Positions 3,242 through 11,129 of a DNA stretch of 32,930 bases are shown here, one piece after another. Position 1 is the stretch's first letter, and every line of letters starts with the position of its first letter. The notes under the pieces were generated by a model. That model had not been told where the DNA came from and made no database searches. It was given only the letters and a program-made list of their open reading frames with translations. A program made the translations under genes and the position numbers. Source of the stretch: a virus (taxonomy: Duplodnaviria; Heunggongvirae; Uroviricota; Caudoviricetes); IMG/VR virus record IMGVR_UViG_2690316161_000021, positions 1 to 32,930 of that record; one strand, given 5' to 3'.

Positions 3242-3550
3242 TTAGCCGGGCTGTGTGCCAGTCTTGCGGGGTTTTTGAGAAGGCGATGTGCTTTTTGGCC
3301 CATCAGGGGAGAGAGACGGACTGATCTGCCCAGCAGCCTCATTTGTTTTTCCCGTCATAAGCCAATTCATGTACTTAAAAAAGCGAGGGTGATTAACAAT
3401 CTTGATAAGCACTTCGCCCCCTATGTTTTCAATCCGCCCCGTTTCATAACGACGCAAAGTGCCGATAGGCACATCAATCAGGCCGCAAAATTCTTCGCGC
3501 GTTAAATCCTCTGATTCACGAATCACTCTAATTTTTTCACCGATAAGCAT
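3242..3550 (-). CDS. Immunity repressor, P2 C-type
   Basis: About 100-aa protein; the pattern EKI..R.SE.L.R...GTL..YE.GR....P.F.KY..W.MT...ESGQI.P...SP.SGQKTG matches P2 C as I recall it. Sits upstream of int and divergent from the early operon. The start is uncertain (the ORF extends to 3586). Confidence 0.75.
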   Translation of the reverse strand: MLIGEKIRVIRESEDLTREEFCGLIDVPIGTLRRYETGRIENIGGEVLIKIVNHPRFFKYMNWLMTGKTNEAAGQISPSLSPDGPKSTSPSQKPRKTGTQPG

Positions 3551-3646
3551 TGACAGTGTTCCTATAAGTACACTAAGCTTGCGCACAAGGTGTACTTATA
3601 AGTACACCAAGTCACAAACAACCACAGATAGCGCAGGTTATCACAC
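3551..3646. promoter_or_regulatory. Immunity switch region with operator repeats (Pe/Pc area)
   Basis: Three copies of TATAAGTACAC: direct at 3564-3574 and 3597-3607, inverted at 3590-3600, giving the 18-bp palindrome GTGTACTTATAAGTACAC. A TTGACA hexamer lies at 3550-3555. Confidence 0.55.
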
Positions 3647-4288: not shown

Positions 4289-4576
4289 ATGACCAAAGAC
4301 CATGCACAAGGTGTATTTATCCGTTTTATTGATTTTCGCGGTGAACTGTTATTACGTGCATCCGCTATTGACGGAGTGACTCCGGCGGGTAAAAACGGAA
4401 CCGACGAAGCCACTTACGTTTATCTGAACGGCACGCGACTGCTTGTGGAACTTCCGTACCAGACCGTACGAGAAATCATTAGCGAAGCTGAAAAGGCACG
4501 CCAGGTTAATGCCGATGAACCCTATATCGAAATTATTTGTATGGATTCAGAAGCTGAAATACAGAAAGCAGATTAA
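4289..4576 (+). CDS. Hypothetical early protein
   Basis: 96 aa from the ATG at 4289 (MTKDHAQGVF...); the longer 4175 start would overlap the previous gene in another frame. Confidence 0.5.
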   Translation: MTKDHAQGVFIRFIDFRGELLLRASAIDGVTPAGKNGTDEATYVYLNGTRLLVELPYQTVREIISEAEKARQVNADEPYIEIICMDSEAEIQKAD

Positions 4577-4587
4577 AGGGCGTTGTG

Positions 4588-4830
4588 ATGGGCAAAGAAT
4601 ATAAAACTCTCATTAACAAAGCACTTGAGCGTTTTTATTTTCGCTTAAGTGCATCAGGCGCTCATGCTGAACGTGCGGCCCGTGACTCATTGACCAGAGC
4701 AATCCGAAGTCTGTATGACGTGGCTTTTTACGCTGATGATCTGGATGCACTTAACGAACTTTCCGAGCTGATCTGTGCCGCAGAATGCGGGGAACATATT
4801 GAACCGTATAAGCTGGGAAATATCGCATGA
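4588..4830 (+). CDS. Hypothetical early protein
   Basis: 80-aa ORF with GTG-ATG start and AAAGGG upstream; its stop overlaps the next start (ATGA). Confidence 0.45.
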   Translation: MGKEYKTLINKALERFYFRLSASGAHAERAARDSLTRAIRSLYDVAFYADDLDALNELSELICAAECGEHIEPYKLGNIA

Positions 4831-5032: not shown

Positions 5033-5449
5033 ATGAAAGCAAAAGAAGAAGGCATTATCGACACATTAAAAAAAATATCAGAAGCGGAAGATGAAATGGC
5101 TAAAGATGCCGTGAAGCGTAGCCAACATATGGCAGCACTTCACGCACTGACCATTGCAAAAATCACCGCTGACGCAGCCAAAATTATTGAGGAACAGGGC
5201 AAAGAAATCGATACTCTTAAAACACAGTCAACAGTTGCAGCCATGAATCCGTCCAGCATTGGACGCCGCATTTACATTCTTGGTTCGGCAATAATGACGC
5301 AATACACCATTATTGCCGAACTGCACGGCAAATACCTGATAACGCCTTACCACACAAAAGAGTCAGAGCTTCTGACAAATCTCCGCCTGATAGAACGCTC
5401 TCAAGCTGTATTCATTGATGACGCGCAACGTGCCGTATTTAACGCATAG
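5033..5449 (+). CDS. Hypothetical protein in an AT-rich early-region moron
   Basis: 138-aa ORF with GGAG RBS; the 4830-5450 interval is visibly AT-rich compared with its neighbours. Confidence 0.5.
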   Translation: MKAKEEGIIDTLKKISEAEDEMAKDAVKRSQHMAALHALTIAKITADAAKIIEEQGKEIDTLKTQSTVAAMNPSSIGRRIYILGSAIMTQYTIIAELHGKYLITPYHTKESELLTNLRLIERSQAVFIDDAQRAVFNA

Positions 5450-5939: not shown

Positions 5940-6235
5940 GCACCATCAACCACCAGAAGCTACGCGAACTGGCATTTGCCCTGCAACGAATGGCAACGCC
6001 TCAAAAATTACTGGCATTTCGCGCAATGCTCTCGCCGTCTGCTGTGCTGGCACTGCTGAATGAGCTGGAGCACGCCAGAACCACGGCTCCTGCCATTCGC
6101 CTGACGCTCCATCATGAAATCGCTGATTTCTGCGCGACGTTGGAGGCGCCGGGCGAACCGGAAACGCCGGAAGCAATACAGCAAGAGCTGCTGCAACGCA
6201 TTGACAAGGTTTTTGATTTTTTTCTGAACCAGTAA
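5936..6235 (+). CDS. Hypothetical early protein
   Basis: 99-aa ORF, translationally coupled to the upstream gene. Confidence 0.45.
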   Translation: MSTINHQKLRELAFALQRMATPQKLLAFRAMLSPSAVLALLNELEHARTTAPAIRLTLHHEIADFCATLEAPGEPETPEAIQQELLQRIDKVFDFFLNQ

Positions 6236-6358
6236 GAAACCAGAACATGCACACACAAAAAAACCGCTTGCCATGCCGCAATCAGTCAGGTTACATTTCC
6301 GCTGCACCTCATAAAACGGGTGCCGGGATTTCCACCCCGCTGACAACCAAAGCGCACA

Positions 6359-6378
6359 ACCGCGCCAGCGGTTTTTTT
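6359..6378 (+). terminator. Intrinsic terminator inside the early operon
   Basis: Stem ACCGC/GCGGT with GCCA loop followed by seven T residues (6372-6378). Confidence 0.5.
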
Positions 6379-6557
6379 GTGCGTACCGTATCGCCACGTC
6401 TTTTTCGCACACGAATTATGGTGGGGCGTACAGGGCCGACTTCGGTCGGGCCGGGTTCTTTGGTTGCCGGTTGTGGAAACCCTGTACGTCTCACCACCCC
6501 GAGTTTTCCACCTCTGGATGGTGAGTTTTCAAAACTTACAACCAAAGAGGCCACCCC

Positions 6558-6788
6558 ATGGCAAACCGCAAACAACAGCGCGCATACGCTGCGCGTCGTC
6601 ACATCCAGACTGAAATCAACCGCAGACTTTACCGCGCATCACGCGTCGCTCGTATCATGTTCATCAACATGTCACATGAGCACAGCCACGTGCTGTCAAA
6701 CGCCTACTCCGCCGCAGTATTTAGCTATCTGGCGGATGATCTGCGCGAGCTTCAGCAGCTCATCGAGCAGCAAAACAAACCCCATTAA
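6558..6788 (+). CDS. Hypothetical early protein
   Basis: 76-aa ORF with AAAGAGG RBS 7 nt upstream. Confidence 0.45.
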   Translation: MANRKQQRAYAARRHIQTEINRRLYRASRVARIMFINMSHEHSHVLSNAYSAAVFSYLADDLRELQQLIEQQNKPH

Positions 6789-6860
6789 TTCCTGTTCCGG
6801 GCCTTTCCTGCACCTTGCGGCGGGAGGCCTTCGCACATCTGTAGTAAAGAGAATTGCAGC

Positions 6861-7250
6861 ATGATTGACGCTCATGACTTCACAAGATGGGTGCGCACAC
6901 AGGACACCCGTCTGGCTCCCGTTCTTCAGGGATTATTTGATCTCTACATCCGTGGTCGTGACAACAGAGCACGCACCACAAAACCGGAGAATGCAGACAC
7001 CCTTTATTTCACAGTAGACGACTGCTACCGCGTGGACTTCACACCACACGGGCTGGCGTTGCACTGCCTGACACCACACGGAGAATCACTGCTGGCGTAT
7101 TACGACTCCCCGGCCTCCGTATTTGCGGCAATGCTGGCGCATCGCACTGCTGGCGGGTGTGCCTCGCTGAGTGAATACACCGCTGAATTTAACCGCCTTT
7201 CTGCCCTCTTCTCGCAGGAGTGGCAGCGCGTGACGGGATACCAGCCATGA
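6861..7250 (+). CDS. Hypothetical early protein
   Basis: 129-aa ORF immediately upstream of gene A; its stop overlaps the A start. Confidence 0.45.
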   Translation: MIDAHDFTRWVRTQDTRLAPVLQGLFDLYIRGRDNRARTTKPENADTLYFTVDDCYRVDFTPHGLALHCLTPHGESLLAYYDSPASVFAAMLAHRTAGGCASLSEYTAEFNRLSALFSQEWQRVTGYQP

Positions 7251-10093
7251 ATGAGTTTGCATGGAGCTGGAATGAACCACGGCCAGCCATTGATCCGGCC
7301 AGATTTACGGAGCACAGGCAGGAAACTGAAACCGACCTGCAACGCGCCATCCGTTACTACCTTGAGGCAGACAAAAAGGCTCTGGAAGAACAGGAAGCGA
7401 AGGAGGAAGCCTTTTTCGCACAATCCACCGTGGGTAAAAAACTCATGGCATCCCTTGAGGAAGCCGGACAGCGTGAAAAGCTGGCACAAAGCATCATCAG
7501 CAAGCGTCAGGCAACAGAACAAGACCCGGTGGCCCGTGCTTTTGCCACACTGAAGGTGCTTCCCGTTTATCTGCGTGAACCTCTGAGCCGCCACCTCTCT
7601 TTCCTGCGCAAAAAACAGGAAGCCGATCGCCAGAAAGGCAAAAAGAGCTGGCAGGCTGAACGCTACGCGCGCGGAACCCTGCGCAAAATATTCGAACGCC
7701 TGGACCGCACCGACCACCGCTGGCTGACACCGGGTTATCGCTCCCTTGCCGGACGCGAACGCCTGGATGATTTGCTTTACCTGCCGCAGCTCAACAAGCA
7801 CCAGATACAGACGCTGGCCACCATGACGGCGGCGATGTTCAGCAGCACCTTCGAAAAACTCTGCGATGGCTTTGGCGCGACCGATGGTGAGCTGACCATG
7901 GATGTAACGCTGAAGGCGTATCAGATGCTGGCCCGCATGGCGTTACACCTGCACGCCATGCCTCCACATTATGACGCACTGACAACAGACAAAGACCGGA
8001 GGAACGAACCGGACACGGAGCTGCTGCCGGGCGCAATCCTTCGCCTGACCTGTGCGGAATGGTGGAAACGCAAACTGTGGCTGTTACGTTGCGAGTGGCG
8101 GGAAGAACAACTCCGCGCCGCCTGTCTGGTTTCCAGAAAAACATCACCCTATCTGAGCCAGGACGCGTTAAGCGAGTTTCGCGCACAGCGCGAGAAAACA
8201 CGCGATTTCCTGAAAAGTTTCATGCTGGAAAATGAAGACGGGTTCACGATTGATCTCGAGACGGTGTATTACGCGGGAGTAAGTAACCCGGTTCACCGTA
8301 AGGCAGAAATGATGGCCACCATGAAGGGGCTGGAACTTCTGGCCGAAGCCCGTGGCGACAGAGCGGTGTTTCTGACTGTCACCTGCCCGTCAAAATACCA
8401 CGCAACAACGGAGAACGGTCATCCGAATCCCAAATGGAACGGGGCCACTATGCGCGACTCCAGCGATTACCTGGTTAACACGTTTTTTGCGGCGGTCCGC
8501 AAAAAACTGAACCGCGACGGCCTGCGCTGGTATGGCATCCGCACGGTGGAGCCTCACCATGACGGCACTGTGCACTGGCATATGATGGTCTTTGCACATC
8601 CGGACGAGATTGAAACCATCGTGTCCCACGTCTGCGATATTGCCATTCAGGAAGACCGCCACGAGCTGGGCGATGACATAACTCCGCGTTTTAAGGCGGA
8701 GTACGTCGACGGCTCAAAAGGCACGCCAACCAGCTACATCGCCACCTACATCGGAAAGAACCTGGACAGCCGCGCCGTGGATGGCATCGACCCGAAAACG
8801 GGCAAGCCACGCGTTGACCACGAAACAGGTAAATCAATGGCCGAGAGCGTGGAGCGCGCCATCGGCTGGGCGCGCCTTCACCGGGTCCGTCAGTTCCAGT
8901 TCTTTGGCATCCCCTCCCGTCAGGTGTGGCGTGAACTGCGCCGCCTTGCCAGCCAGATGGCACGCAATCCGGAAGGCCCGCAACGGCTGAAGGATGACGC
9001 AATGGACGCGGTACTCGCTGCCGCTGATGCCGGATGTTTTGCCACCTACATTGAGAAACAGGGTGGCGTACTTGTTCCACGCAAAGACTACCTGATTCGC
9101 ACCGCCTACGACCTCGCAGATGAGCTGAACGATTACGGTGAACAGAGCGTACAGATTTACGGGATCTGGTCGCCGCTCATTGGGGAGTCTTCCCGCGTAT
9201 GCACGCATCCGGATAACTGGAAGCTGGTAAGACGCAAACCGGAAGCGGAAGACAGCGCCCGCGAAAATGGTTTTGACCTTCAGGGCGGCCCTGCCGCCCC
9301 TTGGACTCGGACTCGTGGCAATAACTGTCCCCGTGTACAGGAAACAGGCAACAACGGGACAGAACAGCCGGAAGAACGGCCAGCACCGTGGCCGCAGCTT
9401 CCTGACGGCGTTGAAGTAAATGAATGGATGCGCTCACTGAAACGGCACGAACGCCGGGCGCTGATGCGTTCGCTTCGTGACAAACAGGCAAAAAACAGCA
9501 GCGATGAAATGCAGAACTGGACACAGAGCCGCAAACAGCAGCGGCCTTTGCCTGATAACCACGAGTTACTCGCTAAAGAATGGCGGGAGTCTGCTGAATC
9601 TCTCGGCCTGCATATCGGTGAACAACAGATGCAGCACCTGTTACGGGGCGGCAGTCTGTACGTTGACGGCAGCATCATTGCACCGCAGGGATTTGAAATT
9701 GTACGCAAACCGGATACCCGCCCGGACAGCCGAATCACGCAGCTCTGGCAGCGTCTGAGCCGTAATCATGGCGTAAGCAGCACGGAGATCCGCCATAACC
9801 CGGTCGCCAGCTATCTGGCACAGCTGGGGGCATCAGACCCTGAAGCCGCCGCACGCCTGGCATCCACACTTCAGCAGGACCAGAACACCATGAAAACACC
9901 CGTTACCGTGCTTTCTGACATGCTGCGCGCCATCCGCGACGCAGAGCACGCACAGAGAATCAGTGAAACCACTGAACGCGCCAGCCGCAAAGCAGACCTG
10001 CTGCGGGGTGGCCTGACCAGTGGAAACAAAAAACAGACAGAAACGGGACTCACGAATCCCGTAAATGAGCAAAAAACGCGCAGCGATATATGA
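7247..10093 (+). CDS. A: Replication initiation endonuclease, P2 gpA family (rolling circle)
   Basis: About 950 aa with an HUH-type motif (HHDGTVHWHMMVF) and a tyrosine-containing region (YIATYIGKN) typical of P2 A-type initiators. The start could be 7220 or 7247; the C-terminal roughly 250 aa looks like an extension. Confidence 0.85.
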   Translation: MNEFAWSWNEPRPAIDPARFTEHRQETETDLQRAIRYYLEADKKALEEQEAKEEAFFAQSTVGKKLMASLEEAGQREKLAQSIISKRQATEQDPVARAFATLKVLPVYLREPLSRHLSFLRKKQEADRQKGKKSWQAERYARGTLRKIFERLDRTDHRWLTPGYRSLAGRERLDDLLYLPQLNKHQIQTLATMTAAMFSSTFEKLCDGFGATDGELTMDVTLKAYQMLARMALHLHAMPPHYDALTTDKDRRNEPDTELLPGAILRLTCAEWWKRKLWLLRCEWREEQLRAACLVSRKTSPYLSQDALSEFRAQREKTRDFLKSFMLENEDGFTIDLETVYYAGVSNPVHRKAEMMATMKGLELLAEARGDRAVFLTVTCPSKYHATTENGHPNPKWNGATMRDSSDYLVNTFFAAVRKKLNRDGLRWYGIRTVEPHHDGTVHWHMMVFAHPDEIETIVSHVCDIAIQEDRHELGDDITPRFKAEYVDGSKGTPTSYIATYIGKNLDSRAVDGIDPKTGKPRVDHETGKSMAESVERAIGWARLHRVRQFQFFGIPSRQVWRELRRLASQMARNPEGPQRLKDDAMDAVLAAADAGCFATYIEKQGGVLVPRKDYLIRTAYDLADELNDYGEQSVQIYGIWSPLIGESSRVCTHPDNWKLVRRKPEAEDSARENGFDLQGGPAAPWTRTRGNNCPRVQETGNNGTEQPEERPAPWPQLPDGVEVNEWMRSLKRHERRALMRSLRDKQAKNSSDEMQNWTQSRKQQRPLPDNHELLAKEWRESAESLGLHIGEQQMQHLLRGGSLYVDGSIIAPQGFEIVRKPDTRPDSRITQLWQRLSRNHGVSSTEIRHNPVASYLAQLGASDPEAAARLASTLQQDQNTMKTPVTVLSDMLRAIRDAEHAQRISETTERASRKADLLRGGLTSGNKKQTETGLTNPVNEQKTRSDI

Positions 10094-10169: not shown

Positions 10170-11129
10170 ATGAAAATTTACATCGACGACGGCTCCACCA
10201 ACATCAAGCTGGCATGGACTGAGAACGGCGAACGCCGCAACGCCATCAGCCCGAACAGCTTCAAGTCGGAATGGTCTGCGCCGTTCGGTGGCTCGCAGCC
10301 TGCTAACTACATGCTTGATGGCGTGCGCTATGGTTTTGATCCGGTCAGCGATCGCTTTGTCCAGACGACCGACACGCAATACCAGTACAGCGATGTGAAT
10401 GTCATTGCCATTCATCACGCGCTGGTCAAATCAGACATCACGCCACAGGAAGTGGATGTGGTTGTTACCCTGCCACTGAGCGAATATTTCGACACAAACG
10501 CACAGCCGGACATGGCCAACATCAACCGCAAAAAAGCGAACGTCATGCGCCCGGTGGAGTACCAGAACGGCGAAGCATTCACTATCCGTAACGTACGGGT
10601 TATGCCTGAATCCATTCCGGCTGGCTTTAAAGCACTGGCTGACATGAGTCCGTTTGAATCCCTGCTGATTGTGGATTTGGGCGGAACCACGCTGGATGTG
10701 GCAAAGGTTCAGGGGCAACTGGCAGGTATCAGCCAGGTGTTTTGCGATCCACACGTAGGCGTTTCTCTTATGGCCGATGCCGTACTGTCGGTGATGGCCA
10801 CTAACGGTATGCGCACCAGTCACCACATCGCCAATACCATTATCGAACATCGCCATAATGAAGCCTGGCTGCGCCAGCACATCCACAATGACGCGCATTA
10901 CGCCAGCCTGATGGCGGTTATTCGTGAAAAGGAAGAAACACTGAAACAACGCGTGATCCGCGCGCTGGCGGTTTTTTCGGGTTACGGGCGGGTGATGGTT
11001 GTCGGTGGCGGGGCGGAGATTGTGGCACCCGCTATCCGCGAAGCCTGCGGAGTTAATGCGACTTTCATCGCGGACGGGGTGCCACAGTTTGCTCTGGTTA
11101 ATGGGCTGTACGCAATGGACAAGGAGTAA
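10170..11129 (+). CDS. parM: ParM/StbA-like actin-type segregation ATPase
   Basis: 319 aa with actin-fold motifs IDDGSTNIKL, DLGGTTLD and VVGGGAE. From memory it is collinear with plasmid R1 ParM (YSDVNV, ERKKAN, VMPESIPAG); not verified by search. Confidence 0.8.
   Translation: MKIYIDDGSTNIKLAWTENGERRNAISPNSFKSEWSAPFGGSQPANYMLDGVRYGFDPVSDRFVQTTDTQYQYSDVNVIAIHHALVKSDITPQEVDVVVTLPLSEYFDTNAQPDMANINRKKANVMRPVEYQNGEAFTIRNVRVMPESIPAGFKALADMSPFESLLIVDLGGTTLDVAKVQGQLAGISQVFCDPHVGVSLMADAVLSVMATNGMRTSHHIANTIIEHRHNEAWLRQHIHNDAHYASLMAVIREKEETLKQRVIRALAVFSGYGRVMVVGGGAEIVAPAIREACGVNATFIADGVPQFALVNGLYAMDKE

Follow-up and report, generated by a model that had tools for sequence, protein, structure and literature searches.

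A probable IsrK-C4 RNA immunity cassette among the early genes of a P2-type phage related to P88

Why would a phage early operon be interrupted by a gene-free island? This question was raised by the virus record IMGVR_UViG_2690316161_000021, of which we analyzed positions 1 to 32,930 (referred to here as the window; the promoter, RNAs, recognition elements, leader frame, and three downstream genes described below are all on the plus strand). An original prediction, made from the letters alone, had described positions 6236 to 6557 as a gene-free island between two well-formed genes and had suggested that it may encode a small RNA or an attenuator that gates transcription into replication gene A. 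The gene-free stretch was borne out by the list of open reading frames (ORFs) and by direct reading, as a 99-aa ORF stopped at 6235 and a 76-aa ORF began at 6558. The window belonged to a P88-like, P2-type phage (Xuanwuvirus) and was 86 to 96% identical to complete P88-type genomes; the island region of P88 and its relatives was likewise 86 to 96% identical to that of the window. The window contained an integrase, a P2 C-like repressor (3242-3586, minus strand; 39% identity to P2 C), an early operon, gpA, and ParM, and P2-type late genes were expected from the identity to P88-type genomes. Our results indicate, with a probability of about 85%, that an intact RNA immunity (anti-immunity) cassette with IsrK and C4, of the type known from P4, P1, N15, and Gifsy-1, occupies the island in this P88-like early operon.

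When the whole window was scanned with Rfam at curated thresholds, exactly two matches were obtained and both were inside the island; a scan of the window for tRNA and transfer-messenger RNA genes found none. The upstream match, at 6304 to 6378, was to the isrK family (RF01394), which includes the P4 SeqA-like RNA, and it covered model positions 1 to 77 of 77 with 64.3 bits (gathering score of 50; E = 9.7e-12). The downstream match, at 6414 to 6501, was to the C4 family (RF01695) of antisense RNAs, which includes P4 CI, and it covered model positions 1 to 87 of 87 with 82 bits (gathering score of 45; E = 7.4e-15). The isrK match was located directly upstream of C4 with a spacing of 35 nt, and the same arrangement was found in 13 other loci, including P4 and Gifsy-1. 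P88 itself carries both isrK and C4 according to Rfam. We assigned the island to this type of cassette because both families exceeded their gathering scores and because the same pair is present in P4, Gifsy-1, and P88. The features of the C4 and isrK families that can be examined in sequence were found, the isrK promoter as a putative site, and so was a P4-type operon layout. What the original prediction had missed is that the island consists of two already curated RNA families that make up a P4/P1-type immunity module. Its proposal of a small RNA or an attenuator held in that the island encodes small RNAs and forms a regulatory gate, but the terminator is the 3' end of IsrK and not a free-standing attenuator.

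The IsrK-like RNA was composed of hairpin 1 (6304-6323), hairpin 2 (6324-6339), a single-stranded linker, and an intrinsic terminator (6359-6378). Direct reading and a terminator scan both agreed with the terminator that had been predicted (ACCGC at 6359-6363, GCCA at 6364-6367, and GCGGT at 6368-6372, with a T run at 6372-6378); the scan matched 6358-6373 plus the T tail and rated the terminator as strong, and the terminator was invariant in P88-like relatives. The C4 RNA was composed of a basal stem (6419-6435 with 6480-6496), a UUCG hairpin (6436-6449), and hairpin 2 (6450-6471). The UUCG-capped hairpin noted by the original prediction was present and proved to be the first internal hairpin of C4. 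Its true stem was only 5 bp long (CCGAC at 6436-6440, UUCG at 6441-6444, and GUCGG at 6445-6449), and the flanking GG and GCC that had been added to it belonged to other helices of the 88-nt structure. When C4 was folded alone, the minimum free energy (MFE) structure was equal to the family structure, with an energy of -46.4 kcal/mol and a z score of -3.9, and none of 200 shuffled sequences was as stable.

Covariance analysis of the hairpins in relatives, which had been proposed as a check on the prediction, supported both folds. In the case of C4, 93% of the cells in an alignment of 20 homologues were paired, 13 pairs showed compensatory double changes, and 0 of 500 shuffles reached the observed score; in slid controls, in which the pairing partners were shifted, only 30 to 48% of the cells were paired. 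For isrK, 83% of the cells were paired in 15 homologues, compensatory changes were seen in 9 pairs, and again none of 500 shuffles reached the observed score.

The two RNAs contained the short recognition elements that are expected of such a cassette. Specifically, C4 carried b' (TCTTTGGTTG, 6457-6466) in the 12-nt loop of hairpin 2 and a' (GTGGAAA, 6473-6479) in the internal loop that follows hairpin 2 on the 3' side. In IsrK, a1 (TTTCCAC, 6329-6335) was located in the loop of hairpin 2 and was the exact 7-nt complement of a', and b1 (CAACCAAAG, 6344-6352) was located in the linker and was a 9-nt complement of the b' loop. Downstream of C4, a2 (TTTCCAC, 6505-6511) matched a' at 7/7 positions and co-varied with it across alleles, and b2 (CAACCAAAGA, 6539-6548) was complementary to b' over 10 nt and overlapped the Shine-Dalgarno sequence AAGAGG (6545-6550) of the 76-aa gene, which is epsilon-like (see below). 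The local duplex energies were -14.2 kcal/mol for b'-b1, -20.9 kcal/mol for b'-b2, -12.3 kcal/mol for a'-a1, and -15.6 kcal/mol for a'-a2. On the plus strand of the entire 32.9-kb window, b2 was the longest non-self complement to C4, and b1 was the other of the two longest. The targets were in the order a...b and the C4 elements were in the order b'...a', which fits an antiparallel duplex. P1 c4 has been described with this a1 b1 / a' b' / a2 b2 arrangement, which in P4 corresponds to seqA / seqB / seqC. When folding of the complete read-through transcript was predicted, the MFE structure had a1 and b1 paired in cis with a' and b'. A second complementarity, between 6355-6362 and 6468-6475, was discarded because it was not collinear with b1/b' in an antiparallel duplex, and it was treated as a product of chance or repeat similarity. 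As for the idea of a gate into gene A, a gate in front of the downstream early genes was upheld, but the direct target supported by the sequence is the ribosome-binding site of the epsilon-like gene, which has b2 over its Shine-Dalgarno sequence, and not gene A.

Co-variation of the elements was examined in two collections of loci. For the first, IMG/VR was scanned with a degenerate pattern (CTTCGGNNNNGCCGGNTTC), and about 35 of 120 matches were real C4 RNAs, the rest being chance matches. A fold filter was applied, which yielded 29 distinct C4 loci with 20 different a'/b' alleles; one locus, L027, passed this filter yet behaved as a false positive in the allele comparison. The a' and b' elements were parsed by motif, as parsing based on the MFE failed for several loci. 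Each allele had its complements at the same offsets upstream and downstream of C4. Across the 20 alleles, the mean longest complement in matched loci was 6.9 nt for a1, 6.95 nt for b1, 7.05 nt for a2, and 8.7 nt for b2, compared to 3.6, 4.35, 3.8, and 4.55 nt, respectively, when a C4 was paired with the flanks of another allele. The largest mismatched total was 24, and 70% of the matched totals were at least 28.

The second collection consisted of 71 P88-like loci that were fetched via the 76-aa protein. A total of 18 combinations were seen in these loci, drawn from 11 different b loops and 7 a segments; a1/a2 targets that matched a' were present in virtually all combinations, and b targets that matched b' were present in most. 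Among near-identical P88-like relatives, the a/b elements, which occupy 57 of 302 nt, were enriched for variation and contained 31 of the 84 variable island positions. The comparative evidence is direct and, on sequence grounds, indicates that the a/b pairings are a selected function and set specificity. The a' element of the window (GTGGAAA) was also the exact reverse complement of the a' of alleles of the Shiga toxin (Stx) phage type (TTTCCAC; L008 and L016), so the antisense and target roles of this 7-mer have been swapped between lineages. A similar near-swap was observed between L022 and L073.

A sigma-70-like promoter was predicted upstream of isrK at 6268 to 6297, with the -35 hexamer TTGCCA at 6268-6273, an 18-nt spacer, the -10 hexamer TACATT at 6292-6297, and a predicted start at about 6304. 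The Rfam match to isrK began exactly at the start predicted for this putative promoter. The two hexamers (a scan match of 9/12) did not vary among P88-like relatives, including those with a different spacer or different upstream DNA; in the region as a whole, the promoter scan returned 2 sites compared to 2.2 expected from shuffles. In P88-like relatives, homology started abruptly at about 6250 to 6256, which is just 5' of the -35 hexamer, and the genes upstream of this point differed. This break marks a boundary in the mosaic, and the RNA cassette thus behaves like a mobile module.

One of the closest known parallels is satellite phage P4, whose immunity region has the layout PLE - seqA - CI RNA - seqC - kil - epsilon - orf151 - alpha. 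P4 seqA and CI fell into the same Rfam families as the RNAs in the window, with 60.8 bits for isrK and 74.9 bits for C4, respectively. Both elements have an upstream target, an antisense RNA, and a downstream target, followed by epsilon or its homologue, further ORFs, and a replication gene; the order is seqA, CI, kil, epsilon, orf151, orf106, and alpha in P4 and isrK, C4, the epsilon-like gene, orf129, and gpA in the window. In both cases, a frame through the antisense RNA ends in an overlap with a downstream start, which is that of epsilon in P4 and that of orf129 in the window. The differences are that the window represents a complete P2-type phage and P4 is a satellite; that the window is without a kil-like 65-aa gene and has its epsilon homologue at the P4 kil position, directly behind b2; that the isrK-C4 spacer is 35 nt in the window and 107 nt in P4; that the replication gene encodes the gpA nickase in the window and the alpha primase-helicase in P4; and that the recognition sequences differ. 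The original prediction had contrasted the island with an uninterrupted early operon in P2. Indeed, a scan of the P2 early region with Rfam found neither isrK nor C4, but the operon is not strictly uninterrupted, as the P2 record has a putative Rho-independent terminator after gene B (L124 2981-3008, which corresponds to P2 26980-27007).

Two further systems were informative. In P1/P7 immI, c4 controls icd-ant; this RNA belongs to the same C4 family and follows the same two-element logic with upstream and downstream target copies (P1 was compared by description only). As in the window, the downstream copy in P1 covers the site where ribosomes bind to the first gene, and an anti-repressor (a putative one in the window) comes under control. 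The downstream genes in the window are not icd or ant, however, and its upstream target copy is packaged as a separately terminated small RNA. The details of the P1 c4 mechanism were reportedly worked out by Citron and Schuster in 1990 and by Biere and coworkers in 1992. The Gifsy-1 locus isrK - STnc1160/orf45 - anrP carries the same isrK/C4 family pair, as judged by Rfam, at loci that have been studied experimentally; isrJ was not found when the window was scanned with Rfam. The Gifsy-1 promoter, a near-consensus sigma-70 promoter directly upstream of isrK (TTGACA-17-TATATT), is at the same position relative to the mapped IsrK start (PMC4825925), and b2 adjoins the ribosome-binding site of an anti-repressor-type gene in both Gifsy-1 and the window, although the downstream protein is an ORF6N-type AnrP in the former and epsilon-like in the latter. 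Hershko-Shalev et al. (2016) pointed out the structural homology of IsrK to P4 SeqA and the resemblance of STnc1160 to CI (PMC4825925).

Family membership, structural covariation, exact complementarity, co-variation of the six elements, and synteny with P4 were thus observed directly, and they suggested how the cassette could operate. Transcription from the promoter at 6268 to 6297 would start at about 6304, and most transcripts would stop at 6359 to 6378, which would produce an IsrK/SeqA-like RNA of about 75 nt. Transcripts that read through the terminator would carry the 88-nt C4/CI-like RNA (6414-6501). In P1 and P4, the C4/CI-type RNA is excised by RNase P. The b' and a' elements of C4 would then pair with b2 and a2, and, with b2 covering the Shine-Dalgarno sequence, translation of the epsilon-like gene would be blocked. 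By analogy with P1 icd-ant and P4 kil and timm, the untranslated RNA would be terminated by Rho, and orf129 and gene A would thereby stay off in a lysogen and in a superinfecting homo-immune phage; the termination analogy draws on general knowledge of P1 and P4 and on published work (PMC4825925 and PMC3632133). IsrK, which carries the exact target copies a1 and b1, could capture C4, either in cis or in trans, and shift the balance toward expression. Such a role has a precedent, as IsrK of Gifsy-1 activates translation of the downstream anti-repressor operon in trans and induces the prophage (PMC4825925). In this scheme, what we infer is that the promoter is used, that the RNAs are processed, that Rho-dependent polarity extends to gene A, and that the 76-aa protein acts as an anti-repressor. 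Replication gene A would come under control of the RNA switch by analogy with P1 and P4 and by way of the chain of overlapping start and stop codons that leads to it.

Several points weigh against this model. The promoter match was only 9/12, and the early promoter also drives transcription of the operon that contains the island, so lytic transcripts would have to escape both the IsrK terminator and C4. A Rho-dependent terminator is not identifiable from sequence, and the anti-repressor role of the 76-aa protein depends on 35% identity to epsilon over 51 residues. In Gifsy-1, activation was explained by alternative cis structures and translation of orf45 rather than by simple titration of a trans-acting C4, and coexpression of STnc1160 did not counteract IsrK (PMC4825925).

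The Gifsy-1 findings bear on the idea that the island is purely a cis-acting attenuator, in which the terminator at 6359 to 6378 and refolding of the leader set the level of read-through and no RNA acts in trans. Pairing of a1/b1 with a'/b' in the read-through fold resembles the silent "structure A" of Gifsy-1 (PMC4825925), and a strong, invariant terminator would suit such a device. However, a device that works only in cis needs neither a conserved promoter of its own nor a separately stable C4 fold that is supported by covariation, and the homologous RNA in P1, P4, and N15 acts in trans and defines immunity specificity. IsrK of Gifsy-1 likewise works in trans (PMC4825925). Very high allelic diversity in which the triplets stay matched is, moreover, the signature of selection for specificity between elements and not of a cis switch, and we consider the attenuator quite unlikely. 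The same diversity is relevant to a proposal raised by Barquist et al. for lambdoid prophages with IsrK-C4 (PMC3632133), namely, that the cassette serves mainly in conflict between elements, as protection from P4-like satellites or hetero-immune relatives, and not in the phage's own lysis-lysogeny decision. P88-like phages are P2-type phages and thus of the helper class for P4, the cassette and an epsilon homologue are common to P4 and the window, and the specificity alleles are extremely diverse and recombining, all of which would fit. On the other hand, the a'/b' elements of the window differ from those of P4 and the sampled P4-like loci, so no direct cross-reaction is predicted, and the perfectly matched targets are the window's own. 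Conflict as the main purpose is very improbable in our estimation, but it is compatible with a cassette that controls the phage itself, and the two are not mutually exclusive.

A different kind of alternative is that a genuine protein, a member of the Pfam "Ash" family, is made from the island and that the conserved hairpins are incidental. As originally reported, a 205-aa ORF (6247-6864) does exist and overlaps a better downstream gene, the 76-aa gene, in another frame. This ORF matched Pfam PF10554 (Phage_ASH) with 32.7 bits, above the cut-off of 26, and matched several PHROG "transcriptional regulator" families over residues 12 to 133 at most; RefSeq labels the locus "ash family protein," and the Ash frame is open in most homologues. 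However, the Phage_ASH match (residues 16-110, nt 6292-6576) spanned exactly the two RNAs, and the longer PHROG matches and the "Rha" and "peptidase" matches came from real downstream genes that had been extended upstream across the RNAs. An open frame also says little here because C4 has no stop in any of the three plus-strand frames and the island has only three stops in the other two frames. The variable sites of the island were distributed over the codon positions without bias (27/31/26), and within the epsilon-like gene the Ash frame had 4 to 6 synonymous compared to 20 to 36 nonsynonymous changed codons, with the third-position excess in the epsilon frame. The variable segments were a/b elements that changed as complementary RNA sets, which a protein model does not predict. 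In addition, indels that were not a multiple of three occurred in relatives, NCBI's Prokaryotic Genome Annotation Pipeline (PGAP) calls the Ash frame a truncated pseudogene, and no NCBIfam model matched the 205-aa ORF. In P4, the cI "ORF137," which lies over the CI RNA, was reportedly ruled out as the immunity factor decades ago, and the P4 record still lists it. Codon-position bias, synonymous and nonsynonymous counts, indels, and public annotation led us to reject an Ash protein as the primary function, and such a protein is highly unlikely to be what the island encodes. The original prediction held that a conserved, translated 205-aa frame would overturn an RNA interpretation; no coding signature was found in the island, and that interpretation was not refuted. 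Translating conserved RNA genes on paper accounts for the Phage_ASH match, and we do not assign the locus to that family.

Two database annotations over the RNA genes look spurious. One is the RefSeq "ash family protein" pseudogene in E. coli O157:H7 FRIK944 (L126 4498-4767, corresponding to window 6247-6516), a locus that was identical to the window over the 311-nt island that was queried. The other is a minus-strand hypothetical protein in the P88 GenBank record (L125 5020-5208).

Part of the 205-aa ORF may have another use. A leader open frame of 148 codons (6418-6864) runs from a conserved AUG in C4, passes through the whole epsilon-like gene in another reading frame, and overlaps the start of orf129 at its end (ATGA). 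The AUG at 6418 is the homologue of the first AUG (A107) of Gifsy-1 orf45, and a conserved AUG at the 5' end of C4 and an ATGA overlap with a downstream gene are shared by Gifsy-1 and the window. Gifsy-1 orf45 is translated and coupled to anrP via its ATGA overlap (PMC4825925). The two frames differ in that orf45 has 45 codons and ends at the start of the anti-repressor gene and the leader frame in the window has 148 codons and ends at the gene after the epsilon-like gene. If the leader frame were a functional coupling device in P88-like phages, ribosomes that enter at the AUG of C4, once the structure has been opened by IsrK or by refolding, would bring translation into the replication genes and shield them from Rho, independently of epsilon translation. 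The frame was open in 39 of 39 unique relatives, compared to 0 of 39 for the other alternative frame, and about 5% of synonymous recodings of the epsilon-like gene kept it open. No new stops were present among 82 observed variants, compared to 2.95 expected (P of about 0.05); one relative restored the frame via -1, +2, and +2 indels, and in another the frame was fused in-frame to the next gene. Against coupling, codon-position and synonymous/nonsynonymous counts detected no amino-acid-level constraint in the leader frame, direct reading of the sequence before 6418 found no obvious Shine-Dalgarno sequence, and 4 of 80 loci broke the continuity of the frame from the AUG. Overall, the evidence is weak and suggestive, and we regard a coupling function as tentative and rather unlikely.

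The first gene behind the RNA module (6558-6788) encodes the 76-aa epsilon-like derepression (anti-repressor) protein. It matched the Pfam family Derepression (PF25738; E = 4.6e-8) and was 35% identical to P4 epsilon over 51 aa (E = 5e-8). The variable sites of the gene by codon position were 23/24/44, which is a third-position excess in its own frame. P4 epsilon is the protein that derepresses P2. Because the repressor in the window is P2 C-like, the 76-aa protein is a plausible anti-repressor of the phage itself, and by analogy its likely target would be the phage's own P2 C-type repressor. The next gene, orf129 (6861-7250; 129 aa; phrog_3237), had a start that overlapped the stop of the leader frame (ATGA), and no similarity was found between its product and that of P4 orf151. 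The stop of orf129 (7248-7250) overlaps the gpA ATG at 7247 (ATGA), so the two genes appear from their sequence to be tightly coupled.

The gene gpA (7247-10093) encodes a replication initiator (rolling-circle nickase) that matched Pfam Phage_GPA (E = 1.5e-129) and was 31% identical to P2 A. It exceeds P2 A by about 190 aa, most of them at the C terminus. The program-called ORF starts with GTG at 7220, and PGAP uses the equivalent of the ATG at 7247, which overlaps the orf129 stop; 7247 is the more likely start. A ParM/StbA plasmid-segregation gene (10170-11129) directly follows gpA, a hint that the phage could also be maintained like a plasmid, as P4 and N15 are. Between the epsilon-like gene and orf129, the 72-nt spacer (6789-6860) contained a GC-rich hairpin at 6799-6830 (GGGCCUUUCCUGC...GCGGCGGGAGGCC), which we rejected as a significant element (z = -1.6 and no U tract). 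Some relatives retained this hairpin, and others had it replaced.

The gene that immediately follows C4 in other lineages was of the Rha type, the ORF6N type (Gifsy-1 AnrP), DUF3077, DUF6124, or a kil-like 64- to 65-aa ORF. Because this gene varies among lineages, the IsrK-C4 cassette is a portable regulator in front of anti-repressor-like genes. The isrK-C4 pair was also found at about 70 to 75% identity in Stx-converting phages, N15, ST64B, and cdtI and Yersinia phages, and both RNAs are already annotated in one Stx phage record. At a coverage of at least 80%, the island was present in 1138 of 5426 complete E. coli genomes, O157:H7 strains among them, and some E. coli O157 genomes had two or more places that matched the module. 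One viral record, IMGVR_UViG_2698536657_000004, carried two tandem isrK-C4 modules (4574-4762 and 5233-5421) about 660 nt apart with different recognition loops, which may be a double immunity cassette. The Rfam family c4-a1b1 (RF03163), which describes the a1/b1 targets, overlapped isrK in related loci. Other Rfam matches near C4 loci of related viral contigs were int-alpA RNA (RF02996) and TwoAYGGAY (RF01731), at L029 5981-6049 and L064 2832-2951.

This kind of system is thoroughly known, the module is very common, and the locus is close to what has already been described. The current understanding of how such modules work is unchanged. In the literature, we found no published mention of these RNAs in P88-type phages. 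The results have value for annotation, as an island that is labelled an ash pseudogene or a hypothetical protein is in fact two regulatory RNA genes. The 11 b loops, 7 a segments, and 18 combinations within one lineage are a clean natural data set of orthogonal antisense-target pairs. For the biology of this group, the results suggest that P88-type P2-like phages carry the same RNA immunity cassette and epsilon-type gene as satellite P4, which points to module exchange between helpers and satellites. P88 is inducible with mitomycin (PMC5285337), and the cassette in these phages points to an RNA-gated anti-repressor route to induction that is absent from classical P2.

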